A stretch of DNA of 42,118 nucleotides from Geobacteraceae bacterium (GTDB lineage Bacteria > Desulfobacterota > Desulfuromonadia > Geobacterales > Geobacteraceae), in the NCBI GenBank assembly GCA_041484725.1, contig JBGPID010000001.1:1-42118 (forward strand). The letters are read 5' to 3'. The translations under genes were made by a program, and so were the position numbers. Shown one piece after another: positions 13,611-33,111 of the stretch. Under the pieces are notes generated by a model. The model did not search any database. It saw nothing but the letters and a program-made list of their open reading frames with translations, and had not been told where the DNA came from. Numbering within the stretch: position 1 is the stretch's first letter; every line of letters starts with the position of its first letter.

Positions 13611-13615
13611 GATGT

Positions 13616-15650: not shown

Positions 15651-16306
15651 ACCGTGGCAGAATGCTCCTGGTAATAGGCCAAGGCCTCTTCCACCCGGTC
15701 GAAGTTGTGAAGCCTCCCCGCCGTCAGTACTGCGGCCTTGTCGCAGTTGGCTTTAATAAAATTCGGATCGTGTGATACAATTATCATGGCGCGGTCCTTG
15801 CGTTTTTCGAACAGCTCAACGCGACACTTTTCGTGAAAACGGCTGTCACCGACGGCGATTATCTCATCGATCAGGAAACAATCAAACTCGACTGCCATTG
15901 AAATGGCAAAGGCCAGTCTGGACCTCATGCCGGATGAATAGGTCTTGACCGGTTCTTTCAGATATCGTCCCAGTTCGGAAAACTCCTGTACAAAAGGGAT
16001 CTTCTCTTCGGTGGTGGCTCCATAAATTCTGCAGATAAAGCGCAGGTTATCCAGACCGGTCAGGGTGCCCTGGAAAGCGCCCCCGAAGGCAAGAGGCCAT
16101 GACACGCCCATCTCGCGTCGAATCGTTCCGGATGTCGGCTGTTCGGCGCCGCTGATCAGGCGGATAAGTGTTGATTTCCCGGAGCCGTTCCTGCCGATTA
16201 TCCCTATTTTTTCGCCAGGATTGACCGTAAAGTTGACCTGATCAAGCACAGTGACCTCTCCATGGCGGGTATGATAACGTTTTACCAGGTCGGTTATCTG
16301 AATCAT
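15647..16306 (-). CDS. kpsT: capsule polysaccharide ABC transporter, ATP-binding protein
   Basis: Walker [10 protein letters not shown], signature YSSGMRSRL, Walker B CFLIDE. Short form with no C-terminal carbohydrate-binding extension. Start chosen at MIQITDL (ATGA overlap with the kpsM stop); the track ORF extends to 16372. Confidence 0.9.
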
Positions 16307-17121
16307 TCCGGGGTTACCCTTTTGCTGATATATCGCTCCTGGGATAGAGCAAGAACGGTCAGCCCCAGACACACGGAAGCCATATATGTAAAGTTATAGT
16401 GGGAGTGGACCTGGCTGCCAAAGTACCCTTCCCGCAGTATTTCTACTCCGTGCACCATCGGCAGGCAGAGGACAACCTTTTGAAATGTCGGCGGCAGCCA
16501 GTCAACCATGAAGGCTGCACCTGATAAAGGGAAAAGCAGGTATGACGTTGGGTGCCATAATTTTTCCACCACTTCGGTCCGTTCGCTAAGACAGCCCATG
16601 AGTAACGCAAGCGAAGCGCCAAACCAGGCGGTCATAAACCAGCCCAACAGAATCTTAATAATATCCTGTGGTCCCCGCATCCAGCCTATCGAGATAAAAA
16701 AGGTGGACAACACTATGAATGAAGTGGTTGCACCGGCAGCCTCCAGTAGTATGCGGGCGGCAAACACATCAATGACTTTGACATTGCGGTGATACATAAG
16801 CGCCAGATTGGGTTCAACGGCGCCGACACAACGCGATGGCATGTTACGCCAAAGCAGAACCGATGAGTAACCGGTGATGGCAAAGGCTACAATGGGCATA
16901 CTGGAACCGTGATGCATTTTGGCAAACGACCATAACGCCGTAACCCCCAGCGTAAACAGCATCGGTTCGACAAAAAGCCACATGAAACCGATGTTGTGAC
17001 GGCCATAACGGGTAAGCACCTCGCGCATCAAAAGGGCGCCGATTACCCGCATCTGGATCTTGAACGAGCGGTACAGTGGGGTATGGGTATTATTGTGCAC
17101 GGTTAGAGTCTCATCAGTCAT
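16303..17121 (-). CDS. kpsM: capsule polysaccharide ABC transporter permease (ABC-2 type)
   Basis: Multi-TM ORF of ~272 aa directly upstream of kpsT with typical ABC-2 spacing. Start chosen at MTDETL (8-nt overlap with the kpsE stop). Confidence 0.85.
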
Positions 17122-18274
17122 GGTGTTCACGCACACCGGCAATCAGCATGGTCAGTACGCCCCAGCAGATCAACCCCACCGCAAAGGTCGTGAAGATCGC
17201 CCTGAACCGCCGCGGTTCAAAAGCTTTATCGGGCTTGTTCGGCTGCACGATACGCTCCAGGTACAACTGTTTGCGCAGGGCTTCGTTGCGGGCCTGTTCC
17301 AGCGCGGCCAGGGCAGTGGCAAGCTGCTTTTCGGCAAAGGACTGCTCCAGGACCAGTCGCTCGTATGCGCTGGCCTGGCCGCTGAATGACTGATCGTTAC
17401 CGGCCACCTTTGCGGTTTCAGTGGCAATTTCCTTCTGTAGTATTTCCACCCGCTTTTGCAGCACCGGCACTTGTGGATTGTTTTCAGTAATCATGCGGAT
17501 CTGCGCCAGCTCGGTCGTGGCGGCAATCAGTTCATCCTGCAGCTTTGAAACCCGCTGCAACTGGATGGCTGACTGTTTTACCGGATCAAAGACCGCCTTC
17601 TTGTTACGATAGGCTGAAAGGGCCAGCGAGGCCGCCTTGTCCTTCTTGTCCGCATCGGCCACCTCCTGGGCGGCAGAGCGTATCATGTCCTGCCTGCCCC
17701 TCTCGTTCAGCTTGTTCACCAGTTGTTCACTCATCTCAAGCAACTGCTCATTGATCCTGGCAGCCTGGTCCGCTGAGAAGGACCGGATTTCCAGGGTGGT
17801 GATGGATGATGAGCTGTCGTTGTTGATGGTGACGATCTTTTTCTTATAATATAGGTGCAGCGCCTCGAAGCTTTTGTCCCGCCAATTCGTCCCTCCAAAG
17901 CGGCTGATACGATCAATGCTTGATGCGCCATAGGTAGCTGCTATGGCCAGTTTATCGTTTAACGCCTTCAGGGCGTCACGGGATTGGATAAAATCCTGGA
18001 CGGTGTAGCTGTCATCCTGTGAGCGGGAAAAACCGGACCCTTTCAGAAACGAGCCCAGGAATGAGGCGGTCTGGCGTTCTGGGGTGCGGACGACAAAACG
18101 GGATTCCGAGATGTAGACATCGGAAGCCATGAAGCCGTAGTAGATGATCGCCGACGTGGTCGGCAGGACAACCGTCAGCAGAAAGAGGCGGTTTACGCCC
18201 AGGATGCGCTGTTTGAACTTTTGAGACCGTGATGAAGGCGCTTGCTCTAGTTCGGAGGTTTCTGGTGATTGCAT
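17114..18274 (-). CDS. kpsE: capsule export inner-membrane protein (PCP-3, KpsE/CtrB-like)
   Basis: 386-aa ORF. N-terminal TM then SDVYISESRFVVR, a long coiled periplasmic region and a C-terminal TM (FTTFAVGLICWGVLTMLIAGV). Confidence 0.85.
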   Translation of the reverse strand: MQSPETSELEQAPSSRSQKFKQRILGVNRLFLLTVVLPTTSAIIYYGFMASDVYISESRFVVRTPERQTASFLGSFLKGSGFSRSQDDSYTVQDFIQSRDALKALNDKLAIAATYGASSIDRISRFGGTNWRDKSFEALHLYYKKKIVTINNDSSSSITTLEIRSFSADQAARINEQLLEMSEQLVNKLNERGRQDMIRSAAQEVADADKKDKAASLALSAYRNKKAVFDPVKQSAIQLQRVSKLQDELIAATTELAQIRMITENNPQVPVLQKRVEILQKEIATETAKVAGNDQSFSGQASAYERLVLEQSFAEKQLATALAALEQARNEALRKQLYLERIVQPNKPDKAFEPRRFRAIFTTFAVGLICWGVLTMLIAGVREHHD

Positions 18275-18348: not shown

Positions 18349-19686
18349 TTACTGCAGCTCATCTGCCAGTGTTTGAACGGTTGTTTTAATCTGCATTTCC
18401 GTGTGCATGCAAGAGATAAAAAACCTGAGTCTGGCCGATTTTTCAGGTACTGCCGGGTAGAGGATCGGCTGAACATTGATGCCGCGCTGAAGCATGGCAG
18501 CCGAGAGGCGGGCTGCCTTGAGGGAGCTGCCGGTAATGACCGGAATAACCGCCAGTCCCGCGCTGGTGCCGGAGTCTATGCCTGCCTGCTTTGCCAGGTG
18601 CAGAAAAAGTTGCCCCCGTTCCTGCAGAGCTCTCACCCGATCCGGTTCACGCAGCATGATCCTTAGAGCCGCCAGCGAGGCAGCCGCCAATGGTGGCGAC
18701 ATTCCGACGCTGTATAGAAAACCGGGGGCCAGAAATTTGAGGAGCTCCACCAGAGCAGTTTCACCGGCAATGAACCCGCCGCAGCCTGCCAGGGTCTTGC
18801 TGAGGGTTCCCATCCAGATATCAACCTCACGGCCATCCAGCCCAAAATGTTCACGAATCCCCAGCCCCCTTTTTCCCATCACGCCGAAGGAGTGGGCCTC
18901 ATCCACCATCAGGAAGGCACCGTGCCTTTTTTTGAGCTCCACAAAGCGGGGCAGATCCGGATAGTCGCCATCCATGCTGTAGATCCCCTCCAGCACGATC
19001 AGCACCCGCTCAAACTGGCGGCGCTGGGCGGTGAGGATGCCATCCAGGGCCTGCCAGTCGTTGTGGGGGAAGGAAAGCCGCTTTGCTCCGGAAAGCTGTA
19101 TTCCCTGCAGAATGCTGTTATGAATCAGATCGTCATGCAGGATCAGGTCTTTGGGGCCGAACAGATAGCCGATGGTACTGACGTTGGTGGCATGGCCGCT
19201 GACAAAGACAACGGCATCGTCAACACCGTAGACGTCCGCCAAGGTGCGTTCAAGGTCGCGGTGGATCTGTTTTTCACCGGAAACCGGTCGGCTGGCCGAT
19301 ACCGAAGTGCCGTAGCGATCAATAGCTGCCTTGGCGGCTTCCGTTACCTCGGGGTGTCCGGACAGGCCCAGATAGTTGTATGTGGCAAAGTTGATAAAAA
19401 CCTTGCCATTAATACTGGTGGTTGCGCCGGCAATCCCGTCGTGAACCATAAAAAACGGGTTGCCAACTCCGAGCCTGGCGGCGCCGTTGACTATGATCCG
19501 CAGCTGCAGGTAGCCTGGGTGCTTATCAAAACGACAGAATTTTTCCTGAACCCGGACAGCCGGCCCTGCACCTGATCCGGTGGCGACCGCAGGGGCAGCG
19601 CTGGCGGTGGTCTGATCCACCTGCCGCAGGCGGCGTTCCAGCACCTGCTGGATCAGCTTGTCCTTGATCCGGTCGGTAAGTCCCAT
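18349..19686 (-). CDS. alpha-oxoamine synthase family PLP enzyme (BioF / serine palmitoyltransferase / CqsA-like)
   Basis: 445-aa ORF with NFATYNYLGLSGHPEV, HNSILQG, DEAHSFGVMG and GTLSK(297)TLAGCGGF. The start lies 1 nt after the PKS stop. Confidence 0.9.
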   Translation of the reverse strand: MGLTDRIKDKLIQQVLERRLRQVDQTTASAAPAVATGSGAGPAVRVQEKFCRFDKHPGYLQLRIIVNGAARLGVGNPFFMVHDGIAGATTSINGKVFINFATYNYLGLSGHPEVTEAAKAAIDRYGTSVSASRPVSGEKQIHRDLERTLADVYGVDDAVVFVSGHATNVSTIGYLFGPKDLILHDDLIHNSILQGIQLSGAKRLSFPHNDWQALDGILTAQRRQFERVLIVLEGIYSMDGDYPDLPRFVELKKRHGAFLMVDEAHSFGVMGKRGLGIREHFGLDGREVDIWMGTLSKTLAGCGGFIAGETALVELLKFLAPGFLYSVGMSPPLAAASLAALRIMLREPDRVRALQERGQLFLHLAKQAGIDSGTSAGLAVIPVITGSSLKAARLSAAMLQRGINVQPILYPAVPEKSARLRFFISCMHTEMQIKTTVQTLADELQ

Positions 19687-19687
19687 C

Positions 19688-22600
19688 TCAGTCTATCATC
19701 CGTTCAGGTGTCGTTGCCGCAATGCCGGCCGCGATATCGTAGAGGGCTGCCTCAGGGATATCGGCAGCATGCAGGCGTGCCATATGGGCAACCTGGTCAC
19801 TCAGCGCATCATCACCATCAGGCTGTTCACCCCCACGGATGTGGGTTACGACCAGACTGGTCAGCTTGGCGATGGTGGGCCCTTCGGTCATGGCCATCAC
19901 CGGCAACTGTATGCCGAAACGGGCTTCAAGGGCAGTCATAAGCTCAACCCCCATCAGGGAGTCCAGCCCCATCTCATACAGTGATCGATCAAGCGTGATC
20001 TTGCCAGGCTGCAGCCGTAGGATCTGACCGATCTCCTGCTTCAGGATATCTGCAATCACGCTCCGCAGTTCGCTGTCCGGCAATTCGGTCAAACAGAGCA
20101 TGCTGTCGGCTAGTTTATCATCAACATCCTCATTGCCGTAACGGCGGGAGAGCCAGGCAAACCTTGCATGAGCGGCACTGGGCAGGAAGCGACGCATGGC
20201 CGGCCAGGCAAGCTCCAGCACCCCCAGCCCGGAACGGTTGGACAGCAGTAGCTGTTCCAGCACAGCAAGGGCCGTGTCTGAATGCAGCGCCTTCCCTCCC
20301 AACCGGCACTGCAGTGACTCCTTGATCTTCCGGTTACGGGCCAGGAAGCCAACATCGTCAATCGCCCCCCAGCGCACCGCCGTGGCTGGCAGTCCGGCAG
20401 CCCGTCGCATCCGGGCCAGCCCTTCCAGCCAGCCATTGGCTGCTACGTAGTTACCCTGTCCCGGATTACCGAACAGGGTTGTAGCCGATGAAAACAGCAC
20501 GAAGTAGTCCAGCTGCATACCCTTGGTCAGGTGGTGCAGATACAGTGCCCCCAGAACTTTGGGGGCCAGCACCCGCCGGATCTGCTCCGGTTGCATGGTG
20601 CGCAGCAGGCCGTCATCAATCACCGCGGCGGCATGCACGATACCTTTGAGCGGCGGTAGCTCATGCTCGATGGTTTTCAGAAGCCGGGTTAGTGCTGACC
20701 TGTCGGTAACGTCACATGCGGCGGCATGCACCTGCACTCCCTGCTGCTGCAGCGCCCTGATTGCTTCCTGCTCTTCAGGCCCTGCAAGGCCGCTGCGGCT
20801 GACCAGCGCCAGACTGCGGCACCCTTTGGAAACCAGCCAGCTGGCGGTACGCAGACCGAAGCCTCCCAGACCACCGGTTACCAGCCAGGTTGCATCCGTG
20901 GGCAGAGTTAATGTTGGCGGTACGGATGGCTGCAGGGGATGGGGATGACTGATTCCGTTACAGTAGGTGACCACCACCTTGCCGATCTGCTGTGATTGCT
21001 CCATGTAACGGAAGGCATCCACCACCTGGTCGGCCTCAAAAGTGGTGTAGGGAAGCGGATGAAGCGCCCCCTGCTCAAAGAGCGCCATAATCTCGTCAAA
21101 GAGCCGACGGGTCAGCTCAGGCTGTAGCTGCATCACCTGATCGGTATCAACACCGAAGTAGCTGATGTTGTTTCTGAAGGGGCGCAGCCCGATGTGGGTG
21201 TTTTCATAGAAGTCCCGTTTCCCCAGTTCCAGAAAACGACCGAACTGTTTCAGTATCCGCAGGTTGCGGTTGATAGCCTCACCGGCCAGTGAGTTAAGCA
21301 CCAGATCAACACCTGCGCCGCCGGTCCGCTGCAGTATCTGGTCGGCAAAATCCAGGGAACGGGAATCGTAGATATGTTCAACCCCCATCAGGCGAAGGAA
21401 ATCCCGTTTCTTATCCGTTCCGGCCGTGGCATAGACCTCGGCGCCGCACCAGTGCACGATCTGAACGGCCGCGAGACCAACGCCACCGGCAGCGCCATGA
21501 ATCAGCACCTTTTCGCCCGGCTGCAGGCGCCCCAGATGGCAGAGGGCGTACCAGGCCGTAAAGAAAGCGGCCGGAATGGTGGCCGCAGCCTCAAATCCAA
21601 GTCTTGCAGGAATATGGGAAGCCGCAGATGCCTTGGTAACCGCCCTGGTGCCAAAACTGGCCGGACCGAAGGTAACTACCCGGTCGCCCGGGGCGAAGCC
21701 GGTCACCGCCGGCCCGGTCCTGGTGACGATACCGGCGCATTCCAGCCCCAGGTTTGCCCCGGCAAAGCCGTTTTCAACGGCTTCATCGGACAGAAGCCCC
21801 AGGGTATACATGAGGTCGCGGAAGTTAAGCCCGGTGGCATGCACCTCGATCTCAATTTCATCCTCCACAGGAGCAATGCAAGGGGACTGTTCCCAACGCA
21901 GGTTCCTGAGCTGACCGGGAAGCTGGAAACCGAGACGGACCATGGTCTGATCCGGATCAACCAGAGCACTGCCGGTACGCCCTGGTGGTGTCTCCAACTC
22001 CAGCCTCGGCACGTAGCGCTTCCCGGCAGGGGTAATGATCACCTCCTGCTCACCGTCAGATTGCTCTATCTCCTGCAGCAGGGCCACAGCCGCATCTTTC
22101 GACAGAGTGCCTTCAAGGCAGATCAGGCGCAAGTCAAGACCGGCGCATTCATTCATCATGCTCCGGCTAAAGGCCCAGAATGAACTGTCAGCAATGGCCG
22201 ACACTCCTTGTTCACCTGCCGGCCAGTCGGCAACATCGGCTGCGGCGCCGGTCGTCAGCAGCCAGACCGGGACGGACACCTGCAGTCGTTCAAGGGCCAT
22301 GGTCATGGCCGATGCAGCGGCGCAGCGCTCCACCTGATGGGCAAGGTATGCATCGCCATCCAGGGTATCGGTCGGGATGCCCGACCCTGTCAGAAACAGG
22401 ATGCCAAGCAGATCACCAGCCTCAACCAGGGAGTGCCGCAGGTTTTCCTCTGAGCAATCGGAAAGCCGTGCACAACGGTTTCCATTGGCTGTCACCAGAG
22501 TGGAAATAATGCCAGCCAGGTCGGCGGATGGGCCCTGTTCGTCATGCACCAGCAGCAGAGTGCGTTGTTTGTCACACTGCGAAAGCGTCATTTGAGGAGC

Positions 22601-25600
22601 AATCGACTTCTGCACTGTCAGAATCCAGGGTCCGGAACCGTGCCGGGGAGCAAGGTCAAACTGCTGGATATTCTCATATCCTGCCGCATGGAGGCTGTCT
22701 TGCCACCAGGTTGACGGGGGGTGCCAGAGTTCATGACCAAAGGCAAGGAATCCTGCCCAGCGTAACGGGTGGAGGCCAACCAGGATAATGCAGCCCCCTG
22801 GGGCCAGAGAAGCCCCGACAGCGGCGAGGGCCTGCTCTGCAGCAGCCTGGCTGCTGAAATCACAGTTAACGATGGCCAGTTGAGCCGTAACAGCAAGGTT
22901 TTCCTGCGTTTGAGAAAGATCATGCAGATTGATGGCGTGATGCTGCTCACGCTGCTGCTCAGTGCGGTCAAGGGCCAAGGATGAACCGGAGGCGAAGTGG
23001 TACTCACTGCGTTCAATATCAAGAGCGCTGCAGATCTGGTCAAGCCAGAGCGACGTCTCCTCACCCAGCTCCAATACAGCCAGCCGTTCGCCTTCCGGCA
23101 GCCCCTGCAGCAGGTCGGCAACCAGTTGGCGCAAATGACGACCAACAATAAACCGGCCGGCGCCCCCCAAAGCCTGCTGCAGCAGCTCTGACAGAACAGC
23201 TTCCTGATGAACTCCTGCATCCTGAAGCGGCTGATCGTTCATCAGGCTGGAGAGCAGCAGACCGACACGCCCCACCCGGTGGATCAATGAGAATCGGTCG
23301 GGATACTGATTGACAAGCCCCAGCCAGAGCTGCCGGGCTTGAATGGTATCCTGCTCATCCGCTTGAATCTGCAGGCCCGATTCGATCCTCAAAACGGCGC
23401 CGTCTTCGATCGTTATCTCAACAAGGGGCTGAAGATAAGGACAATCAGCGTAGAGCCTTTGTAACGTCGCCTCGCTGACATGACAACCGTCCGTGGCTAC
23501 CCGTTGCAGGGCCTCAACCGTAAAACGGCTGCAGAGGCTTTCCAGCAGAGGGTCCAGCTCTTCAACAAAACCGGCCACTGACTGATTGTCGGCAACCAGC
23601 CCGGCAGCCGACGCCATTGTATCGGCAACTAGTTTGACCAGTTCTGTCGGAGGTCTGACAACAGTACCAGGTAACGGTTTGGGGACGCGGTGATAATCTG
23701 GATAGCAGAGTGTATCCACCCCCTGTTTCCGGAGCCTTATCCTCCGGAAACGAACCTGGCTGATGTCGGCTAACGGCCTGCCGTCAGCATCATACAGCAT
23801 GAAATCCGCAGTCAGCGAGTGCGGCCCATGGCCCGTCAGGGTTGCCGTGGCATAACGGGGATGCGTCATGCCCGGCTGATAGCGAACGCGCTCAAACGTT
23901 ACCGGAACGTAGGTCATGCCTCGATAGCTGGAATGCTCTGCCTGCACTATCTGGAACACCAGCTGGAAGGCGTTATCCAAGAAGGTTGGGTGCAGATGAT
24001 AGCCTTCCAGACCAGTTTGCAACACATCCGGGGTCCGCAGAACGGCAGAAGCGCTTCGACCATCCACCCAACCATGCAGAATGGATTGGAAGGCAGGGCC
24101 GTATTGGAGACCGGCCTGCCTGGTCAAGAGTCCATGGGAGCGGGCATCAAAATCAGGTTGTCGATTTGGAGCTGTAAAAGGAGCTACACCCATAAACCCT
24201 GCACAGGGAGCAGGGACGATCCGTGCCACTCCGTGCAAGGTCCAGGGTGAATCACTGAGCAGATCCCGCCCATTGATGGTTACCGTTCCATTGTTCGGAG
24301 CAACTGACAGCCGGACAATGCGGGTTATGCCGTTTTCCAACAACAACGGCGCCCTGATCTCAAGATGTTCAAGCTCAACAGGGCTGTCAGGCTTGAGAGA
24401 AAGGGCTGCTGCCAGGACAATCTCAAGGAAACCGGTGCCGGGGAAAACCACGGCGCCACCAACAGCATGATCGGCAAGCTCCGGATAGAGCGCGGTGTCA
24501 AGCCTATTTTCCCAGGTCAGTTCATACTGCTGCAGGTGATACCCCAGCAGGGGATGAAGCTTGCGGCGTTCCAGTATCCGGGAAGATTCAGGTGTTACCG
24601 GATGCCAGCAACGCTCCCGCTGCCAGGGATAGTTGGGCAGCCGCACAAAGCGACCCGGTTTCGGAAACAGGGCCTGCCGGTTGATCGCTGCTCCCGCAAT
24701 CATGGCCTTTGCAGCAGCCTTGCGAACGCGTTGCGGATCATCATCCCCTCGCAGTAAGGTTGGGATGACACAACCATCTACGCCTTTGCTCTCCATGATA
24801 TCAAGAATATAGTTTCTGAGGATCGCATGGGGGGTAACACAGACGAAAACATTCGTCCCGGCATCAAGGATAGCGCCAACAACCAGTTCGAACAGTACCG
24901 GCTCACAGATATTTTTCCACCAGTAGGTTGCATCCAGCCGGTCACCGGTCAGCTTCCCTCCGGTCACGGTGGAATAGAACGGAATGGATGTCTCACCAGG
25001 AGCAAGGTCTGCCAGCACCTGCAGGAGCTCCGTCTCGATACTGTCCATGACAGGACTGTGGAAGGCATAATCCAGATCAAGCCGCCGGAAGGCAATCTCC
25101 TGCTTCGTGAGAAACGCCTCATACTGTTCCAGCTCGTCGGCTGAACCGGAAATGGTGACGCTCGTGGGGCTGTTGCAGCCTGCCAAAGTCAAGGAAGGCA
25201 ATGCCATTTGCGAAAGCTGTTCAGTTGCCTGGTCACTTCCGATGCTGACCGCTGTCATCTTGCCCAGCCCTTTGGTCAAACCCTGTAGACGGCTACGGCA
25301 GTAGATCACCTTGACCGCTTGCGGCAAGGTCAGGGCGCCGCAGGCCCAGGCTGCGGCAATTTCGCCCACGCTGTGACCAGCCACTGCAGTTGGCTCAATA
25401 CCCAGACTGCGCAACATGCAGGTGAGGCCTATCTGAATTGCAAACAGGGCCGGTTGGGCTATCTCGGTAAACTCGTAACGTCCAGAGCCGTTTCGTCCCG
25501 CCAGTTCATCTACCAACGAAAAATCGGCATACTGCCTGAAAAGAGTATCGACCTCCTCTACGGCCTTAAGAAACACAGGGTCTTTCAGCAGCTCATTCCC

Positions 25601-27247
25601 CATCCCCTCCCACTGGGCGCCATTGCCGGCATAGATGAAGGCCGGACCGGATGGGTTAGACAGCTCAACACCTTGCTCCACGGAACTATCGTCAAGCCTG
25701 TCATCGGAAAAGGCCTGGAACTCTTCTGCAACTTTGCGAAGATCGCTGCCAAACAAGACAGCGCGGCAAGGATGCAGGTCCCGCCGAAACAGGGCGGTAT
25801 AGGCAACATCGTAGAGCGGCAGATCAGGCTGTGTTTCCAGCAATGTCACCATATCGCGGGCAGCGGACTTCAAGGCGAATTCGTCCCTGGCCGAGATGAC
25901 CAGGGGAAGTTCAACAGAATGGTCTGGAGTTGCAGTTTGATTTAGATCAGTTGTTCCACCTTCAAGGATGACATGGGCGTTAACACCACCAAAGCCAAAG
26001 GAGTTTACCCCGATATAGAGCGGACCTTCCTGCCTGAGGGGCCGGTTTTCGGTAACTACCTCCAGGTTAAGCCCTTTGAAGTCAATGGCAGGGTTGAGAA
26101 TTGTGACGCCGATAGTGGCCGGAACCATCCGATGCTGCAAGGACAACAGGACCTTGACCAAACCGGCCACGCCGGCGGCGGCCTCCATGTGCCCCAGGTT
26201 GCTTTTGATTGACCCCACCGGCAACGGTATCTCCTTGGGCCGTCGCTTTCCCAGAGCCTCCCCTAGGGCGCGTGCCTCAATGGGGTCCCCTACGGCAGTG
26301 CCGGTGCCATGAGCCTCAAAGTAATCTATGTCGGCAGGATCAAGTCCGGCCTGCCTGCAGGCCTGTTCAATAAGGCCAGCCTGTGCGTCGGCATTGGGCA
26401 CGGTCAGACCGGATTTACGGCCATCGGTATTAACCGCAGTGGCAGCCACCACCGCCAAGATGGGATCGCCATCGGCAACTGCCTGCCCATACTCTTTCAG
26501 CAGGAACAGCCCGCCCCCTTCAGAGCGGACATAGCCATCAGCAGAGGCATCAAAGACATTGCAACGGCCGCGGGGGGAAAGCATGGATGTCTGGGCAAAA
26601 ATGAGAAAACCATAAGGGTGGAGATGCAGGCTCACCCCGCCGGACAAGGCGTAATCAATTTCGCCGCCGGCTATGGCGCGGCAGGCCTGATGAAAGGCAA
26701 CCAGCGAAGAGGAACAGGCAGTATCAATCGCCATGCTGGGACCATGCAGGTCAAAAAAGTAGGAGATGCGGTTAGCGGTAATACAGATGGTATTGCCGGT
26801 AGCAACGGTTGCATCAATGGCGTCCAGGTCATCCGCCAGGCGGTAGGAGTAATCGGAGGTAGAGATGCCGATGTAGACGCCGCAGTTGCTTCCTCGCAGG
26901 GATGAAGGCGGGACACCGGCGTTTTCCATCGCCTCCCAGGCAAGCTCAAGCAACAGGCGCTGCTGGGGATCCATGAAGGACGCCTCGCGGGGAGAAATGC
27001 CGAAAAATCCGGCATCAAACCCGGCTACGTCGCCGATTGAACCGCCGGCAAAGGTATAACTGCACCCGGGATGTCCCTTTACGGGGTGCTGAAAACTATC
27101 CTTGCTCCAGCGTGACGGATCAACCTGGGTCACAAGGTCACGTCCGGAACAGAGGTCATGCCAGATGTCCGATGTATCAGTCCCTGGCAACCGGAAGGAA
27201 TAGCCAATAATTGCCACTTTTCTGTGCAATATATCTCCTAAGTGCAA
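19688..27247 (-). CDS. type I polyketide synthase, fully reducing single module (KS-AT-DH-degenerate MT-ER-KR-ACP, no thioesterase)
   Basis: 2519-aa ORF. KS: DTAC(178)SSS, EAHGTGT, KSNLGHMEAAAG. AT: GHS(626)VGE and YAFHS. DH: LH(898)PLLG and H(927)AVGGAVVFPGTG. MT-like region with degenerate motif I VLELGEETS (~1391-1399). ER: LIHGAAGGVG (~1915). KR: TGGLGGFG (~2120) and NYVAAN. ACP: GLDS(2430)L. There is no ATG at the ORF top; the likely start is TTG at 27229, preceded by AGGAG. Confidence 0.95.
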   Translation of the reverse strand: MHLGDILHRKVAIIGYSFRLPGTDTSDIWHDLCSGRDLVTQVDPSRWSKDSFQHPVKGHPGCSYTFAGGSIGDVAGFDAGFFGISPREASFMDPQQRLLLELAWEAMENAGVPPSSLRGSNCGVYIGISTSDYSYRLADDLDAIDATVATGNTICITANRISYFFDLHGPSMAIDTACSSSLVAFHQACRAIAGGEIDYALSGGVSLHLHPYGFLIFAQTSMLSPRGRCNVFDASADGYVRSEGGGLFLLKEYGQAVADGDPILAVVAATAVNTDGRKSGLTVPNADAQAGLIEQACRQAGLDPADIDYFEAHGTGTAVGDPIEARALGEALGKRRPKEIPLPVGSIKSNLGHMEAAAGVAGLVKVLLSLQHRMVPATIGVTILNPAIDFKGLNLEVVTENRPLRQEGPLYIGVNSFGFGGVNAHVILEGGTTDLNQTATPDHSVELPLVISARDEFALKSAARDMVTLLETQPDLPLYDVAYTALFRRDLHPCRAVLFGSDLRKVAEEFQAFSDDRLDDSSVEQGVELSNPSGPAFIYAGNGAQWEGMGNELLKDPVFLKAVEEVDTLFRQYADFSLVDELAGRNGSGRYEFTEIAQPALFAIQIGLTCMLRSLGIEPTAVAGHSVGEIAAAWACGALTLPQAVKVIYCRSRLQGLTKGLGKMTAVSIGSDQATEQLSQMALPSLTLAGCNSPTSVTISGSADELEQYEAFLTKQEIAFRRLDLDYAFHSPVMDSIETELLQVLADLAPGETSIPFYSTVTGGKLTGDRLDATYWWKNICEPVLFELVVGAILDAGTNVFVCVTPHAILRNYILDIMESKGVDGCVIPTLLRGDDDPQRVRKAAAKAMIAGAAINRQALFPKPGRFVRLPNYPWQRERCWHPVTPESSRILERRKLHPLLGYHLQQYELTWENRLDTALYPELADHAVGGAVVFPGTGFLEIVLAAALSLKPDSPVELEHLEIRAPLLLENGITRIVRLSVAPNNGTVTINGRDLLSDSPWTLHGVARIVPAPCAGFMGVAPFTAPNRQPDFDARSHGLLTRQAGLQYGPAFQSILHGWVDGRSASAVLRTPDVLQTGLEGYHLHPTFLDNAFQLVFQIVQAEHSSYRGMTYVPVTFERVRYQPGMTHPRYATATLTGHGPHSLTADFMLYDADGRPLADISQVRFRRIRLRKQGVDTLCYPDYHRVPKPLPGTVVRPPTELVKLVADTMASAAGLVADNQSVAGFVEELDPLLESLCSRFTVEALQRVATDGCHVSEATLQRLYADCPYLQPLVEITIEDGAVLRIESGLQIQADEQDTIQARQLWLGLVNQYPDRFSLIHRVGRVGLLLSSLMNDQPLQDAGVHQEAVLSELLQQALGGAGRFIVGRHLRQLVADLLQGLPEGERLAVLELGEETSLWLDQICSALDIERSEYHFASGSSLALDRTEQQREQHHAINLHDLSQTQENLAVTAQLAIVNCDFSSQAAAEQALAAVGASLAPGGCIILVGLHPLRWAGFLAFGHELWHPPSTWWQDSLHAAGYENIQQFDLAPRHGSGPWILTVQKSIAPQMTLSQCDKQRTLLLVHDEQGPSADLAGIISTLVTANGNRCARLSDCSEENLRHSLVEAGDLLGILFLTGSGIPTDTLDGDAYLAHQVERCAAASAMTMALERLQVSVPVWLLTTGAAADVADWPAGEQGVSAIADSSFWAFSRSMMNECAGLDLRLICLEGTLSKDAAVALLQEIEQSDGEQEVIITPAGKRYVPRLELETPPGRTGSALVDPDQTMVRLGFQLPGQLRNLRWEQSPCIAPVEDEIEIEVHATGLNFRDLMYTLGLLSDEAVENGFAGANLGLECAGIVTRTGPAVTGFAPGDRVVTFGPASFGTRAVTKASAASHIPARLGFEAAATIPAAFFTAWYALCHLGRLQPGEKVLIHGAAGGVGLAAVQIVHWCGAEVYATAGTDKKRDFLRLMGVEHIYDSRSLDFADQILQRTGGAGVDLVLNSLAGEAINRNLRILKQFGRFLELGKRDFYENTHIGLRPFRNNISYFGVDTDQVMQLQPELTRRLFDEIMALFEQGALHPLPYTTFEADQVVDAFRYMEQSQQIGKVVVTYCNGISHPHPLQPSVPPTLTLPTDATWLVTGGLGGFGLRTASWLVSKGCRSLALVSRSGLAGPEEQEAIRALQQQGVQVHAAACDVTDRSALTRLLKTIEHELPPLKGIVHAAAVIDDGLLRTMQPEQIRRVLAPKVLGALYLHHLTKGMQLDYFVLFSSATTLFGNPGQGNYVAANGWLEGLARMRRAAGLPATAVRWGAIDDVGFLARNRKIKESLQCRLGGKALHSDTALAVLEQLLLSNRSGLGVLELAWPAMRRFLPSAAHARFAWLSRRYGNEDVDDKLADSMLCLTELPDSELRSVIADILKQEIGQILRLQPGKITLDRSLYEMGLDSLMGVELMTALEARFGIQLPVMAMTEGPTIAKLTSLVVTHIRGGEQPDGDDALSDQVAHMARLHAADIPEAALYDIAAGIAATTPERMID

Positions 27248-27353
27248 ATTTCAGGCGCAGTCAGCAGACTAACCCTATGAAAATTACTTATATTAAAGAA
27301 CAGTTACATGTTATTTCACATTATTTACTAAATTCTAAAACATTTATAATACT

Positions 27354-28175
27354 TCATTGAGTAAATATTGCAATAAATTCTTTTGTTGTGACAAAACGTC
27401 TTTCCGCGTTCCGCAGGTTTTCAAGCACTTCTGCATCGGGCCAGGAATCATGGCTGTCAGAATGATCCTGATGAATACCACCAGAAATCCTACCTGTCGC
27501 TTCAATTGTGTCCAGCAGCATACGGATCCCGAACCTAAACAGCTTGCAATTCAACGATAAGCAGCTGTCTTCGGCTTCTACCGGTATAGCTTTGGTCGCT
27601 ACCACCGGGCCGGTATCAAAACCCTGATCCTGAAAGTGTACTGTTACCCCTACCTGCTCTTCTCCCCGTGCAAGGGCGTGGATGACCGGATCAACCCCTT
27701 TGTACTCGGGCAGCTGACCGGGATGGATGTTCAGGCAGCCCTTTGGCGGCAGGGCAAGCAGTTCCGGACCGATCAACTGGTTAAAGTGGGCCGACAACAT
27801 CAGATCTGGATTGCACGCCTGCACAAATGCAATACCGTCGGCAACGTTGATGTCTCTCGTTTGCAATATTGGCACACGGTTACGCGCCAGGTATTTCCCC
27901 ACCGGATCATGGCGCCACAGACGACGCAACTGGGTGTGCAGCGACGTTACCAGCCACAAATAGGCTGCATAACGTAAACCGGTCCGGCGCACCAGCAGGA
28001 TAGCATCCCACCAGCTCCAACCCTTTTTCCGCAAAATCCGGGTAGAGGCAACCACCCCCACCAGTATCAGGTGAGGAGACCTGATCATTTCCTGCAGCAC
28101 AATGGTGGAGTAGATGCTGGGACAGGTACAGAAGACGACACGAAGCGGCGTGTTTAGAGATGTTGAAGCGTTCAT
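27354..28175 (-). CDS. formyltransferase-fold protein (Formyl_trans_N-like)
   Basis: 273-aa ORF with CLNIHPGQLPEYKGVDP (the N-x-H and HPSLLPxxRG-type motif) and FDTGPVV (Asp of the N/H/D triad). It carries an unusual hydrophobic insertion near the N-terminus. Confidence 0.7.
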   Translation of the reverse strand: MNASTSLNTPLRVVFCTCPSIYSTIVLQEMIRSPHLILVGVVASTRILRKKGWSWWDAILLVRRTGLRYAAYLWLVTSLHTQLRRLWRHDPVGKYLARNRVPILQTRDINVADGIAFVQACNPDLMLSAHFNQLIGPELLALPPKGCLNIHPGQLPEYKGVDPVIHALARGEEQVGVTVHFQDQGFDTGPVVATKAIPVEAEDSCLSLNCKLFRFGIRMLLDTIEATGRISGGIHQDHSDSHDSWPDAEVLENLRNAERRFVTTKEFIAIFTQ

Positions 28176-29734
28176 CGGATAATTCCAACGGCAGGTTGCA
28201 GACAGTTTTCTTGATGGCTCACTAATCCCATCAACTGGACAAGCAAAACAGGAAGTTGCTCAACCCGCAGTGTAGACGACAGACCATCTGCCTGCTGCTG
28301 ATTACTCCAGACCAGGTAATCAACTGTACAATCCGGAGCACCAAGTCTGCGGTAGACCTCCGGCATTATCGGCAGGTGATCACCATACAGACAAAACCAC
28401 GCGCCCCGTTCCATGGATTCAAGCTGTTGCCGCACCATGCCCAGCAACTGGTCGGCTTGTTCAATATGCCTCAAGTAAACGGTCAAATCATCACATCCCT
28501 GTGGTTGGCTGGTCGTATAAAGACGTTGACGGTCTTCCGGATGGGCCTGCTCAAGGTGAAGTGGGCCATGGTTTTCCATTGTGATGACAAACAGGAAAAC
28601 CGGCGGTGTCTCTGTTCTTTCATGCCGTGCAAGCTCTCGGCAAGCTTCTCGTGCAACCGCTGCATCCCCCACATACTGACCAACGTAGTCATTTTTATCA
28701 AACTTGGAAATATCTATGAATTCATCAAAGCCCAGCAGGGGAAAGATCCTTTCACGGTCATAGAACCCGGCTGAGTAGGGATGCAGACAGACCGTGCGAT
28801 AGCCCATCTTTTTCAGAAATCCAGCCAGGGTCGGCACCCCCTGATGGGCCATGCGACGGTATGGCTTGAAGCGATGGATACCGAGCTGACTGTTGGCAAT
28901 GCCGGAAAGAAATGCAAATTCAGTTCTTGCGGTGTTGGCCCCCCAGGCAGGCACTTCCAGCTGGCCGTGGCTGACGGCACTCTGCCTGAGATTGTCAAAG
29001 TTGCGAAGCAGCTCCGGGGAAATCCCTGCGATCCAGCGGCGCGGGTCAAAGAAGGACTCGCTCTGGATCACCACCAGGTTGGGCAACTCGCCCTTTGGTT
29101 TGGGCGATGGAGCGGCAAAACAGGTTGCTGCCTCCCCCTGCCAGGGCTGCTTTTCCGACATGCCGTAATGCCAGAGAGTGGGTAGCAACCCCAGACGGGT
29201 CAGGTCTTCACCAGGGTCAAGCAGCAGACGTACCTTGCCAGTGAAGCCGAACAATATCAGACCAGCACCGGCAACTGCCGTAACCGTCGAACCGGCGGCA
29301 GCCGGCAGCATGCCAAGAGATTGTTCCAAGCGCAGGCCGGTTGCCACAGCCACCACAACGGCAAGTATGACCGTAAAGCCAGACCACAATCCTAAAAACG
29401 GGAGATAGAAACGTGGATACCGCAAGGCATCCACAAAATAGCTTAAGTCCTGATAAATAAACGGTTCACGCAGAGATTGATACTTGGCATTGCTGATCAG
29501 GATCACGAAGAGCATCAGAACCAACAGACCGGCGGAAGCAAACCAGGGACGACGGAGCAGTAGCAGCAGAAGTGTGTACAACAGCAGCCAGATCCCCAGA
29601 TGCAACATTAGCGCTTTGCCTGGACGTTGCCAAGGATGTACGGGCTGCGGTTTAAGCAGCAGTTCCAGAACAAAGGAAAGGACAAGGCCAAGCAACAGCG
29701 GCCATGTTATTGTCTGCCACGCCTGCTCAGCCAT
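28172..29734 (-). CDS. membrane-anchored sulfatase/alkaline-phosphatase-superfamily protein (LtaS / phosphoglycerol- or phosphoethanolamine-transferase-like)
   Basis: 520-aa ORF. About 5 N-terminal TM helices, then LVVIQSESFFDP and WGANTARTEFAFLSG (nucleophile-Thr context typical of LtaS/MdoB-type enzymes). Confidence 0.75.
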   Translation of the reverse strand: MAEQAWQTITWPLLLGLVLSFVLELLLKPQPVHPWQRPGKALMLHLGIWLLLYTLLLLLLRRPWFASAGLLVLMLFVILISNAKYQSLREPFIYQDLSYFVDALRYPRFYLPFLGLWSGFTVILAVVVAVATGLRLEQSLGMLPAAAGSTVTAVAGAGLILFGFTGKVRLLLDPGEDLTRLGLLPTLWHYGMSEKQPWQGEAATCFAAPSPKPKGELPNLVVIQSESFFDPRRWIAGISPELLRNFDNLRQSAVSHGQLEVPAWGANTARTEFAFLSGIANSQLGIHRFKPYRRMAHQGVPTLAGFLKKMGYRTVCLHPYSAGFYDRERIFPLLGFDEFIDISKFDKNDYVGQYVGDAAVAREACRELARHERTETPPVFLFVITMENHGPLHLEQAHPEDRQRLYTTSQPQGCDDLTVYLRHIEQADQLLGMVRQQLESMERGAWFCLYGDHLPIMPEVYRRLGAPDCTVDYLVWSNQQQADGLSSTLRVEQLPVLLVQLMGLVSHQENCLQPAVGIIR

Positions 29735-30494
29735 GATAACCCAACACGCGGAGCAGACGCCCGGAAATCACCGGGGGCAGTATTGCGAGTAGCCAGCAGC
29801 CAATGCTCAAGGGGAAAGGAAAGCTGATCCGGGGACGGTTGGCTGCCAAGCCTCGCCTGATCGCCGTGGCAGCTTGATCGGCTGACCAGAGAAACGGCTT
29901 GGGGCCCGGAACCGAGCTGGACATCCGGGAGACAACAAAGCCGGGCATGACCAGATTTACTTTTATACCTTCATGTTCAAGACGGCACTGCATTGCCTCG
30001 GCGTAATTCTTGATGGCCGCCTTGCTGGCCGAATAGCTGGGGGTTATCGGCATGCCGTACCATGCGGCAAGAGAACTGATTAAAGCAATTTGCCCACTCC
30101 CCTGTCGACGCATAAACGGTAGTACGGCCTGCACGGTGCCCATGGTGGCCAGAACATTGACCTCAATCACCTCTACAATTGCTTCCCAGCGTTCTCCGTT
30201 GTTGTCAGCGGTACTGCTGACCCCGGCATTGGCAATCACCAGCTCTGGATGTTCCTGCTCACAGACAACCTGAAGTTGTGCCATGAACCGTTGATGATCT
30301 CTCAGATCAGATACCTGTGTCACGACCCGAGCACCAAGGCTCCGACAGTGCCCGGCCAGATGTTCCAGCCGCTCATCACGTCCGAACAGAATCAGAGTTT
30401 TACCCGGCGCGGCATACTGTTCAGCCAAAGCGCTGCCAATCCCCCCCGTGGCCCCGGTGATCAGAATGGTCTTCGGCTCTTCAGACCTGCTCAC
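29727..30494 (-). CDS. short-chain dehydrogenase/reductase (SDR)
   Basis: 255-aa ORF with ILITGATGGIGSALA and YSASKAA (YxxxK). GTG start overlapping the kpsS stop (GTGA). Confidence 0.9.
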   Translation of the reverse strand: MSRSEEPKTILITGATGGIGSALAEQYAAPGKTLILFGRDERLEHLAGHCRSLGARVVTQVSDLRDHQRFMAQLQVVCEQEHPELVIANAGVSSTADNNGERWEAIVEVIEVNVLATMGTVQAVLPFMRRQGSGQIALISSLAAWYGMPITPSYSASKAAIKNYAEAMQCRLEHEGIKVNLVMPGFVVSRMSSSVPGPKPFLWSADQAATAIRRGLAANRPRISFPFPLSIGCWLLAILPPVISGRLLRVLGYHG

Positions 30495-31747
30495 AACAGT
30501 TCTTCTAGAGGAGATCGTTCTGCGGTAAGTCTGGCCACCGAGTTTTCAACTGCCAGACGGATACCATTGGCACAATAAAAGCTGCCGTTCACCAGGGTAG
30601 CCTGAATCACAGTAGCTTTGAAGCAGTGGAACAGCTCCGGGTCAGGGGGAGCTGAAGCCCGCCAAAACTGATCAAGCGTCCCCTGAAAGGTAAGGCCCGG
30701 CAAATTATAGATCGGATCACCGAGGGTAATGGTGGGACAGTTGAACTGCAATGCCACACCACCAACGGTGCTGTTGACGGTAACGGTCCCCCGGGCATGT
30801 TGTACCAGCAATTCCAAATTTCCGGTTTCCAGGTAGTCGATCCTACCCACAATCCCAAAACGCTGTTCAAGCTTTCTAATAACACGAGGATAGTTTACCA
30901 GCTCCATATCAAGGGGATGATTCTTGATAACCAGACGGCTGTCTGACGGTGCATGAAGCGCAAAGGATTCCATGACAAATTCCATCACATCGGTCATATG
31001 TTCAAAGTCGGAATGATCACGAATCTGGGCGTCACTATTCAGCTGCAGAGGGAGCAGATAGAAGGGTATGCGAGATGTGATTAATGCACTGATCGTTGCG
31101 CTGTCGCGTTGCTCATTCCTCGGTTTCAGCGCTAGTCGCTTCAGATACCCGGCATACATGACTGGGGCAATGTTGGGAGCATGGGTACGGTACCCTGGGA
31201 AAAGAACGGAGTTTGTTGTGCTCGCGAGATGATATAGAACATCATGCATGGCCCTGACACGAAATGGTGATTGAAGTGGTTCTGGTGGTGGAATATTCGT
31301 CAAAAGCCTGCCGGTCTGCCGGTACCAGTCGGGATCGCGGGGCAACAGCGAATGAGCATTGACCCCTCCGCGCTCCAGGGTCACCCAATTGGGGCGGAAA
31401 TAACCTTCCTCAAACACATGGACGCGTATACCATCTTTCCGGGCCAGTTCAATGGCCGGACGATGAACCGGACGGCGGTCACCGAACAGGATTATATCGG
31501 TAACACCGGCTGAACGACATTTTTCAATCAGAAACGTGGCAAGCTGTGCTACCCGCCACCTGAACGTCCAGGCTGGTCGTCTTCCCCAGTAGGCAGTATC
31601 ACCACCGTTAAAATTTATCTTTGAAACCAAGTGCCCATCTGCCACTAACCGATCGGCTAACCGGGGGAAAAAAGGCGAACAGACACCTTGTAAGAAGAGA
31701 AAAGAATGATGTGGTCGGGAGTTATGTGACAGCGTGAACCGTTTCAT
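30491..31747 (-). CDS. kpsS: KpsS-like capsule biosynthesis protein (Capsule_synth family; predicted initiating beta-Kdo transferase)
   Basis: 418-aa ORF with FLFLQGVCSPFFPRLADRL...VSKINFNGGD...IILFGDRRPVH...VHVFEEGYFRP, the pattern I recall for KpsS. AAGGAG lies 9 nt upstream of the ATG. It is the first gene of the long minus-strand operon. Confidence 0.85.
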   Translation of the reverse strand: MKRFTLSHNSRPHHSFLFLQGVCSPFFPRLADRLVADGHLVSKINFNGGDTAYWGRRPAWTFRWRVAQLATFLIEKCRSAGVTDIILFGDRRPVHRPAIELARKDGIRVHVFEEGYFRPNWVTLERGGVNAHSLLPRDPDWYRQTGRLLTNIPPPEPLQSPFRVRAMHDVLYHLASTTNSVLFPGYRTHAPNIAPVMYAGYLKRLALKPRNEQRDSATISALITSRIPFYLLPLQLNSDAQIRDHSDFEHMTDVMEFVMESFALHAPSDSRLVIKNHPLDMELVNYPRVIRKLEQRFGIVGRIDYLETGNLELLVQHARGTVTVNSTVGGVALQFNCPTITLGDPIYNLPGLTFQGTLDQFWRASAPPDPELFHCFKATVIQATLVNGSFYCANGIRLAVENSVARLTAERSPLEELL

Positions 31748-32340: not shown

Positions 32341-32703
32341 TCACGCTGCCAGTTTGGTCGAGGCCGTGATCTCCTCCCATGGCACCACATATCGTCCGGT
32401 TTCATCCTTCTCAACCAGCCCGATGTTTTCCAGGGCCTTCACGTCGTCATGGACGTTCTTGTAGTGCCGATGAAGGAGTTTTGCCAGGGCATAGATGGTC
32501 ATTGGTCCGGACTTGTGCAGGGTATCCATAAGGACAAACCGCTTTGGTGGGATGTATTCCAGAGAAGTCTTCATATCGCCGAAGTAGCCACGCTCAACAG
32601 GTTTATCAGGAAATATTCCCTTATCCGCATTCGTCAGGATCTCACTGATTTCCCGGTTGTACTCTTCTTCGCTGACGATCCCCACCTTGAAATCCCTTTT
32701 CAT
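32341..32703 (-). CDS. winged-helix DNA-binding antitoxin candidate (TumA / HVO_A0114-like)
   Basis: Start chosen at MKRDFKVGIV (ATGA overlap with the upstream stop). The C-terminal half, MTIYALAKLLHRHYKNVHDDVKALENIGLVEKDETGRYVVP, looks like a winged HTH. Confidence 0.55.
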   Translation of the reverse strand: MKRDFKVGIVSEEEYNREISEILTNADKGIFPDKPVERGYFGDMKTSLEYIPPKRFVLMDTLHKSGPMTIYALAKLLHRHYKNVHDDVKALENIGLVEKDETGRYVVPWEEITASTKLAA

Positions 32704-32996
32704 ACATTCCCTCTCGATAGCCGCCATGCGGCCTTGTCGGCGTTGAAATCCCTGAAAAGCTGAATAAGGCTGACAAAACGGTATGGTTCTTCCCTGTCGC
32801 CGAAGTGTCGGTGATCACCCTTGCCTTGCTCGTTATCGTACCGGACGATGCTTGTTCCATCGGCAAGGCCGAAATAAAAGCGATACTTGAACGGATGGTT
32901 GCAACCTGGAACCGGTGATGTCAACTGCCACACAATGACCTCCGTAACGGTACCGTCAACGGCTCGCTTGTCCTTGATTATCAGTTCAGCACCCAT
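32700..32996 (-). CDS. TumE-like (DUF6516-like) toxin candidate
   Basis: 98-aa ORF. VIVWQLTSPVPGCNHPFKYRFYFG...VRYDNEQGKGDHRHFGDREEPYRF matches my memory of the TumE/DUF6516 signature (FKYR..Y..., YDNE.GKGDHRH). Confidence 0.55.
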   Translation of the reverse strand: MGAELIIKDKRAVDGTVTEVIVWQLTSPVPGCNHPFKYRFYFGLADGTSIVRYDNEQGKGDHRHFGDREEPYRFVSLIQLFRDFNADKAAWRLSRGNV

Positions 32997-33111
32997 TGAG
33001 ACCCCGGCTGTATATAGCTTTTTTTACCATATAAATAGAAAGAGGGCAAATAAAAAAAGAAGTACGCCTACCGTTGTTACTTCGCTTCCATATTTCCCCT
33101 GTGTCGGGTTT

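Follow-up and report, generated by a model that had tools for sequence, protein, structure and literature searches.

The window analysed here is a 42,118-nt stretch (positions 1 to 42,118) of JBGPID010000001.1, a Joint Genome Institute (JGI) metagenome contig from an uncultured Geobacteraceae bacterium, and it very probably carries a new instance of the rkp-1/wcb-type capsule lipid module, a kind of module that is itself already known. Genes for a KpsS-like protein, a short-chain dehydrogenase/reductase (SDR), an LtaS-like protein of the sulfatase fold, a formyltransferase-fold protein (FT), a type I polyketide synthase (PKS), and an enzyme of the alpha-oxoamine synthase (AONS) family lie in this order, tightly packed, on the minus strand. 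The combination of an RkpA/WcbR-type PKS and an adjoining AONS with a contiguous SDR, LtaS-family protein, and KpsS homologue is that of the rkp-1 and wcb regions, and what is new relative to the studied examples is mainly an extra, cassette-specific formyltransferase-like gene. The module is embedded in a complete ABC-transporter-type (kps-type) capsule locus, since the co-directional cluster continues with sugar genes, kpsD, and kpsC. The gene coordinates, order, strand, and junctions of the original prediction, which had been read from the bare sequence, were all as described upon re-check, and annotation with Pfam and NCBIfam confirmed each of its domain assignments (Capsule_synth/KpsS, adh_short, Sulfatase, Formyl_trans_N, Aminotran_1_2 of the bioF/SPT-like type, KpsE, KpsM, and KpsT). 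The kpsS and SDR genes overlap by 4 nt (GTGA), the SDR and LtaS-like genes by 8 nt, and the LtaS-like and FT genes by 4 nt, whereas 1 nt separates the PKS from the AONS gene and 74 nt separate the AONS gene from kpsE. The features of the module are as follows:

30491 to 31747, minus strand: kpsS-like gene (RkpJ/WcbO equivalent), 418 aa, Pfam Capsule_synth (1.5e-80)
29727 to 30494, minus strand: SDR oxidoreductase gene (RkpH/WcbP equivalent), 255 aa, adh_short (1.6e-39), hydrophobic C-terminus
28172 to 29734, minus strand: gene for a predicted LtaS/GacH-type phospho-alcohol transferase (RkpI/WcbQ equivalent), 520 aa, Sulfatase (1e-39)
27354 to 28175, minus strand: FT gene, 273 aa, N-domain only, Formyl_trans_N (2e-27)
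27230 to 27353, no strand: AT-rich intergenic gap before the PKS gene, 26% GC, containing a ribosome-binding site (AGGAG) and a weak match to a promoter
19688 to 27247, minus strand: type I PKS gene (RkpA/WcbR equivalent), single-module, fully reducing, no thioesterase
18349 to 19686, minus strand: gene for an AONS-family pyridoxal phosphate (PLP) enzyme (RkpG/WcbT equivalent), 445 aa, Aminotran_1_2 (5.5e-47)

The parallel with the Burkholderia pseudomallei/mallei CPS-I locus that had been drawn for this region is real. The wcbO-P-Q-R-S-T block, represented here by plasmid p2 of Caballeronia insecticola, encodes an SDR, an LTA-synthase-family protein, a PKS, an LpxC-like protein, and an AONS, followed by kpsD/M/T/E. 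The SDR, LtaS-family protein, PKS, and AONS of the window are 36-58% identical to those of this block (41% for the PKS and 58% for the AONS), and both sets lie beside kpsD/M/T/E. The Burkholderia-type block, however, has the LpxC-like gene between PKS and AONS and lacks a formyltransferase, whereas the window has the FT gene upstream of the PKS gene and no LpxC-like gene. The genes wcbQ, wcbS, and wcbT are needed in the lung (PMC4631991); wcbPQRT have been described as capsule lipid biosynthesis genes of which little is known and whose product is unknown (PMC11766843).

An older and closer precedent, which had been missed, is the Sinorhizobium rkp-1 cluster (rkpA-J), for which the same lipid-carrier hypothesis was put forward in 1993-97. 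According to PMC4881576 and PMC7902896, this cluster was proposed to make a specific lipid carrier, and PMC4881576 states that it is required for the secretion of K-antigen capsular polysaccharide (KPS) and poly-Kdo (Kdo, 3-deoxy-D-manno-octulosonic acid). In reviews the rkp-1 genes are listed as rkpABCDEFGHIJ, of which rkpA-F make up a single large gene in the strains sequenced, and the KPS of S. meliloti 1021 carries a lipid anchor (PMC5539429, PMC7902896). The S. meliloti locus runs rkpU, PKS (2502 aa), PLP aminotransferase-family gene, SDR, unannotated LtaS-family open reading frame (ORF), KpsS-like gene, and kpsF. Like the window, it thus has a PKS, an AONS directly downstream, an SDR, an LtaS-family protein, and a KpsS homologue, with a link to K-antigen export. 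The window PKS aligned collinearly with S. meliloti RkpA in BLASTP (34% identity over 1425 aa and 41% over 831 aa, spanning query residues 11-1395 and 1687 onward), and WcbR/RkpA form a recognised PKS clade (PMC3908369). Identities to the other S. meliloti proteins were 52% for the AONS, 38% for the KpsS-like protein, 34% for the LtaS-like protein, and 25% for the SDR (RkpH, E 8e-17). The two loci differ in gene order (PKS-AONS-SDR-LtaS-KpsS in rkp-1 and KpsS-SDR-LtaS-FT-PKS-AONS in the window), in the formyltransferase-like gene, which S. meliloti lacks, and in layout, as the export and sugar genes of Sinorhizobium lie in separate regions (rkp-3), whereas those of the window form one co-directional cluster.

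Enzymes of the lipid module

The PKS domains and their motifs, as identified by Pfam and NCBIfam matches together with motif calls, are listed below in protein order (all on the minus strand):

25955 to 27223: ketosynthase (KS), with DPQQR93, Cys178 (TACSSS), and HGTGT313
24689 to 25639: acyltransferase (AT), with GHSVG624 and YAFH727
23735 to 24556: dehydratase (DH), with His898 and D1091xxxQ
22787 to 23074: pseudo-methyltransferase (pseudo-MT), with motif I reading LELGEETS and a Methyltransf_12 score of 15 bits against a cut-off of 30
20966 to 21925: enoylreductase (ER), with GAAGGVG1918
20357 to 20893: ketoreductase (KR), with GGLGGFG2125 and Tyr2267
19838 to 20062: acyl carrier protein (ACP), with Ser2431 in a DSL motif
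19691 to 19837: tail of ~50 aa, with an acidic linker that leads into a conserved terminal xxH(A/G) motif

The KS, AT, and ACP active sites were all placed at their expected catalytic positions, and the proposed KS-AT-DH-(degenerate MT)-ER-KR-ACP architecture was borne out by both types of call. The segment behind the ACP contains no thioesterase, as had been stated, but it is not ~90 aa long: it measures ~50 aa from the domain end and reaches ~88 aa only when counted from the phosphopantetheine serine. Translation probably starts at a second TTG (27229) rather than at the listed TTG (27247). This codon lies six codons downstream of the listed start behind AGGAG and is the start called by JGI, which gives a protein of 2513 aa. 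The AT-rich gap before the PKS gene therefore exists, but its length is likely 124 nt instead of the 106 nt given earlier. Following the reasoning of PMC3908369, the xAFH motif of the AT domain points to malonyl as the extender unit.

The AONS contained the motifs DEAHSFG262 and S-K297-T that had been read from its translation, with K297 as the PLP lysine, and its best match in the PDB was serine palmitoyltransferase (SPT; 3a2b, E 2e-61). It is 52-73% identical to its homologues in related loci. With a gap of only 1 nt downstream of a PKS that lacks a thioesterase, the enzyme is positioned to off-load the polyketide chain, as originally suggested. SPT, Fum8, CqsA, and BioF likewise belong to this family of PLP-lysine enzymes that take an acyl thioester, and the carrier here is one without a thioesterase. 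The AONS differs from SPT, BioF, KBL, and ALAS in its sub-cut-off scores, in having the ACP of a dedicated megasynthase as donor, in the lack of an accompanying ceramide synthase, and in an N-terminal extension of ~75 aa that contains the conserved helix GLxxxLKDKLIQQALERRL (19423-19686). This helix and the xxH(A/G) motif of the PKS tail could serve as docking elements. The pair of a threshold-level SPT and a ceramide synthase, as in a bacterial sphingolipid pathway, was not found in the cluster, and a Pfam scan of cluster ORFs of ≥100 aa gave no N-acyltransferase match except the FT; the AONS may nevertheless work like an SPT. An amino-acid substrate was not assigned because the SPT, KBL, BioF, and ThAOS relatives score too alike.

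The FT looks like an active enzyme. Its best PDB matches were Met-tRNA formyltransferase (FMT), ArnA, and PurN, and N149, H151, and D187 align with the catalytic positions of FMT. The segments N149-I-H151-P and G160VDP as well as D187 were conserved at ≥95% in 118 homologues, and a GQLP motif occupies the SLLP position. The protein thus keeps the Asn-His-Asp set of N10-formyl-tetrahydrofolate transferases, but it has no counterpart to the C-terminal domain found in FMT and ArnA, and it carries a family-specific basic/hydrophobic insertion of ~45 aa (residues ~45-90), parts of which were also conserved at ≥95% in the 118 homologues. We know of no formyltransferase that acts on a lipid amine.

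The five transmembrane (TM) segments predicted for the sulfatase-fold protein were confirmed as five hydrophobic segments. Its best PDB matches were the phosphoglycerol transferase GacH, the primase LtaP, and LtaS, and it has the multi-TM N-terminus, sulfatase fold, Thr nucleophile, and ligands of LtaS/GacH phosphoglycerol transferases, although it belongs to a Gram-negative capsule-linked clade. Every family member compared, RkpI and Caballeronia WcbQ among them, has the nucleophile T268 and the metal or substrate ligands E226, H389, D452, and H453. Because of this relatedness and the invariant catalytic residues, it is reasonable to predict that the protein takes a phospho-alcohol from a phospholipid of the membrane and transfers it, with glycerol-phosphate derived from phosphatidylglycerol (PG) as the likeliest group. 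Counts of K+R over residues 1-200 of 120 sequences (117 database homologues and three locus translations) gave 6.5 for loops 1 and 3, on the side of the catalytic domain, versus 2.6. By the positive-inside rule this bias corresponds to a cytoplasmic catalytic side, the reverse of the pattern expected for an outward-facing LtaS, but the loop 3 charges include the invariant and probably functional K84 and R89, and the calibrators were poor (the Bacillus relative has extra TM helices, and the start of Listeria LtaP is truncated). An inverted topology is therefore not claimed. Loop 3 itself carries the invariant motif K84...R89-E90-P91...D96.

The SDR matched generic PDB entries (3-oxoacyl reductase and 17beta-HSD11/13). 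The KpsS-like protein scored 271 bits with the NCBIfam KpsS model, below the equivalog cut-off of 600, and is predicted to transfer the first beta-Kdo to the lipid acceptor. In the group 2 systems of E. coli and Neisseria, KpsS and KpsC build poly-Kdo on lyso-phosphatidylglycerol. The window shares with these systems KpsS, the GT107 domain of KpsC, and KpsM/T/E/D, but its KpsC has one domain instead of two, neither kpsF nor kpsU is present in the locus, and E. coli lacks the six extra lipid-module genes.

Distribution of the module and its linkage to capsule genes

One genome per GTDB species was scanned with the conserved motifs of the LtaS-like protein, and relatives were found in at least 582 species-representative genomes. 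The best 80 of these loci were compared with the window proteins by tblastn, and linkage was counted in the 47 of the 80 that had ≥9 kb on both sides (full-flank loci). The closest related locus, among the matches listed, was from a Geobacter metagenome-assembled genome (MAG). The gene set also occurred in S. meliloti rkp-1, the Caballeronia wcb-like block, a Pseudomonas plasmid, Marinobacterium, Thiolinea, and metagenome contigs. The earlier description of the module as recurrent but uncharacterised is accurate; the literature still has little to say on wcbPQRT (PMC11766843).

The tightest pair was that of SDR and LtaS-like genes, which were adjacent in all 47 full-flank loci. kpsS was present in 37 of the 47 and single-domain kpsC in 28, whereas PKS and AONS genes were found within 10 kb in only 22-23. 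Across the 80 loci, kpsS, SDR, and LtaS-like genes were mostly contiguous, with kpsS directly upstream of the pair in 58 and often accompanied by kpsC, and in many related loci single-domain kpsC lay directly upstream of kpsS. The PKS-AONS pair was often adjacent to them; its orientation varied, and it could precede or follow the LtaS-like gene. The module splits into two separable units, PKS-AONS(-FT) and KpsS-SDR-LtaS-like.

The FT gene is rare: it was found in only one of the 80 surveyed loci, that of the Geobacter MAG, and the loci of S. meliloti, Caballeronia, and Pseudomonas lacked it. At E ≤ 1e-30, an exhaustive search of 1.84 billion representatives retrieved no more than 81 clusters of FT homologues (clustered at the 50% identity level). 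Nine complete contexts of the FT gene were examined: the window contig, another contig encoding identical proteins, and loci L003-L005, L011, and L094-L096. It adjoined PKS-AONS in every one of them, and on the short contig L006 it adjoined the AONS gene. In L094-L096 (~680-10900 each), PKS, AONS, and FT formed a trio, with 4-nt overlaps in two of the three. The left flanks of these trios held glycosyltransferase or FkbM-methyltransferase genes (L095 and L096) or an LPG_synthase_C gene (L094).

Other loci had different enzymes of a comparable kind. A GNAT N-acetyltransferase gene directly followed the LtaS-like gene in Pseudomonas sp. TMW 2.1634 (L010, 15355-15957), a homologue occupied the corresponding place in another Pseudomonas locus (L087, ~11565), and an LpxC-like deacetylase gene lay between PKS and AONS in a Burkholderia-type locus (L007, 23071-23997). 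The FT, GNAT, and LpxC-like proteins are thus three putative amine- or amide-directed enzymes in these loci, and they point to an amine-bearing intermediate. This pattern is the best sequence-level support available for such an intermediate, which is what an AONS would produce. The N-modifying role that was first proposed for the FT likewise gains support from its constant adjacency to PKS-AONS, from contig L006, and from the GNAT genes of the two Pseudomonas loci.

Proposed pathway and alternative explanations

We lean slightly toward the reading that the rkp-1/wcb-type module makes a capsule lipid through the successive action of PKS, AONS, FT, SDR, the LtaS-like protein, and KpsS/KpsC. The iterative PKS would use malonyl units to assemble a saturated, unbranched acyl chain on its ACP, in keeping with the xAFH motif and the inactive MT. 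Since the PKS has no thioesterase, release is proposed to be carried out by the AONS, possibly docked through its N-terminal helix to the H(A/G) motif of the PKS tail, in a decarboxylative Claisen condensation with an amino acid that would yield a long-chain 2-amino-3-ketone. The FT would then N-formylate the amine, and the SDR would reduce the ketone. The LtaS-like enzyme would use PG to put phosphoglycerol on the lipid, or between lipid and glycan, which would give a lyso-PG-like acceptor or anchor, presumably attached covalently to the capsule. KpsS and the single-domain KpsC would add beta-Kdo, the glycosyltransferases would extend the chain, and KpsMTED would export it. The role of the SDR as an amino-ketone reductase, which had been put forward from the start, is one possibility, but its tie to the LtaS-like gene (47 of 47 loci) is stronger than that to the AONS gene (22-23 of 47).

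A more specific form of this reading is tentative, and we consider it possible rather than probable: the anchor may be a single-chain N-formyl long-chain amino-alcohol (sphingoid-like) phosphoglycerol lipid that mimics lyso-PG and belongs to a previously undescribed class. In this case PKS, AONS, and FT would make a neutral amide lipid, which would receive its hydroxyl and its phosphoglycerol head from the SDR and the LtaS-type enzyme and would be primed with beta-Kdo by KpsS and the single-domain KpsC. The LtaS-type step might move the glycan from PG onto this lipid on the periplasmic side, or the catalytic domain might face inward. The lineage-specific formyltransferase, GNAT, and LpxC-like enzymes would tune the same amine.

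Several points weigh against a single pathway of this kind. Characterised LtaS-, GacH-, and EptA-type enzymes act outside the cytoplasm. The AONS scored below every curated cut-off (bioF, KBL, ALAS, and SPT models), with 216-292 bits against cut-offs of 500-670 for the SPT models. The SDR and LtaS-like genes stayed paired in the 24-25 of 47 full-flank loci without PKS-AONS within 10 kb, and in a Nitrosomonas MAG (L026, 9193-11551) the pair lay behind three glycosyltransferase genes, with neither kpsS nor a PKS gene within 10 kb. Conversely, the PKS-AONS-FT trios of L094-L096 had no kpsS, SDR, or LtaS-like genes within 10 kb, so the two halves may not be steps of a single linear pathway. A literature search for the product chemistry of WcbR/RkpA, or for KpsS/KpsC together with a PKS, returned nothing relevant for any homologous module.

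Some of these observations favour a division into two independent functions, in which SDR and LtaS-like protein would decorate the exported polysaccharide, or a different glycan of the envelope, with glycerol-phosphate in the periplasm, in the manner of GacH, and PKS-AONS(-FT) would supply the envelope with a separate, unattached amino lipid. The capsule may depend on this lipid for its export or retention, though not through a covalent bond. The best solved relatives of the LtaS-like protein (GacH, LtaP, and LtaS) act on extracytoplasmic glycans, the SDR-LtaS-like pair is constant while PKS-AONS lies within 10 kb in about half of the full-flank loci, and both the glycosyltransferase-associated pair of L026 and the stand-alone trios would be expected. 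We nonetheless consider a division of this kind rather unlikely, as kpsS, often with kpsC, is directly upstream of the SDR-LtaS-like pair in most loci (58 of 80) and four window genes overlap by 4-8 nt, which couples the FT to the LtaS-like gene. Moreover, according to the summary in PMC4881576, rkp-1 mutants lose KPS secretion altogether and not a decoration. An improbable alternative is that the PKS/AONS product is not the final anchor but a transient carrier or primer lipid, which would serve in cytoplasmic assembly and afterwards be removed or exchanged, with the LtaS-like enzyme moving the phosphoglycerol-linked glycan between lipids. The established chemistry of LtaS-type enzymes, which cleave the PG phosphodiester and move glycerol-phosphate to a new hydroxyl, would suit such a transfer, and the catalytic residues are conserved. 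Some accessory enzymes would add a formyl or acetyl group, whereas the LpxC-like deacylase would take one off, and these opposite activities suggest a cycle of protection and deprotection, but the window yielded no deformylase to complement the FT, and the sequence predictions are the same as those of the anchor model. The original rkp-1 proposal was itself of a 'specific lipid carrier' (PMC4881576).

It is very improbable that PKS-AONS makes a diffusible amino- or hydroxy-ketone signal or a secondary metabolite unrelated to the capsule. The AONS family does include CqsA-type autoinducer synthases, and the NCBIfam alpha-hydroxyketone autoinducer synthase model gave 148 bits on the AONS, below its cut-off. 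However, an iterative, fully reducing PKS of 2500 aa points to a long-chain product, and linkage to kps/rkp genes persists in alpha-, beta-, and gamma-proteobacterial genera and in Geobacter- and Desulfobacteraceae-labelled MAGs; because this linkage holds across several bacterial classes, such a product was rejected as the main explanation. Genetic data also tie rkpA and the wcb genes to KPS (PMC4881576, PMC5539429).

The identity of the rkp-1/wcb lipid is a question of about 30 years' standing that concerns the capsules of the select-agent pathogen B. pseudomallei and of legume symbionts. The module itself will not surprise a specialist, whereas the pattern of FT, GNAT, and LpxC-like enzymes and the two-unit structure are modestly informative. 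The comparison sharpens testable predictions, although the window alone does not settle the lipid structure. Culturable carriers exist for each variant, namely Marinobacterium profundum (FT), Pseudomonas sp. TMW 2.1634 (GNAT), Caballeronia/Burkholderia (LpxC-like), and S. meliloti (none). As the marker protein is so widespread among species-representative genomes, the chemistry, once solved, would be widely applicable.

Surrounding capsule genes and flanking regions

The remaining genes of the capsule locus supply the complete export set (KpsM, KpsT, KpsE, and KpsD) of an ABC-transporter-dependent, group 2-like capsule system:

17114 to 18274, minus strand: kpsE (TIGR01010 BexC/CtrB/KpsE, 367 bits)
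16303 to 17142, minus strand: kpsM (KpsM match)
15647 to 16372, minus strand: kpsT (ABC_tran match), the last of the ABC-transporter export genes, which together span 15647 to 18274
4745 to 15650, minus strand: serotype-type region with GT4 glycosyltransferases, an FkbM-type and another methyltransferase, a GT4+GT9 fusion, and sugar-nucleotide genes, including those for a mannose-1-phosphate guanylyltransferase and a GDP-mannose 4,6-dehydratase-like protein
3381 to 4583, minus strand: kpsD-like outer-membrane polysaccharide export protein gene (Poly_export, SLBB_2; NCBIfam polysaccharide export protein)
1172 to 2209, minus strand: single-domain kpsC, 345 aa, one GT107 beta-Kdo transferase domain (Capsule_synth, 3.6e-40)

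The best PDB match of the window KpsC was KpsC 6mgd (E 9e-85), and its single domain suggests a Kdo linker with one linkage type. The glycosyltransferase/methyltransferase block at 8000-15000 had a GC content of 0.43-0.48, compared with 0.55-0.61 in the PKS gene, which fits a swapped serotype-specific region. The proteins encoded here include a GT4+GT9 fusion of 960 aa and an FkbM+DUF4214 protein of 695 aa.

A promoter and terminator scan of 13.5-33 kb gave counts that did not exceed the expectation from shuffled sequence (19 found against 12 ± 3.7 expected in the promoter scan), and the scan is therefore silent on co-transcription. The RfaH ops element GGCGGTAG was rejected as a candidate signal, as its only two occurrences were both within the PKS gene, on the wrong strand, and at chance level.

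Between the capsule locus and a sensor kinase, at 32341-33000 on the minus strand, lie a 128-aa HVO_A0114/MarR-like gene and a 98-aa TumE-family gene, which look like a toxin-antitoxin-type or regulatory pair. Farther on, at 34010-39220 (minus strand), three tandem genes are located directly upstream of the gene for a hybrid HAMP-PAS histidine kinase/receiver (781 aa), and the two nearest the kinase were called by JGI as Phosphonate-bd (PhnD-like binding protein).

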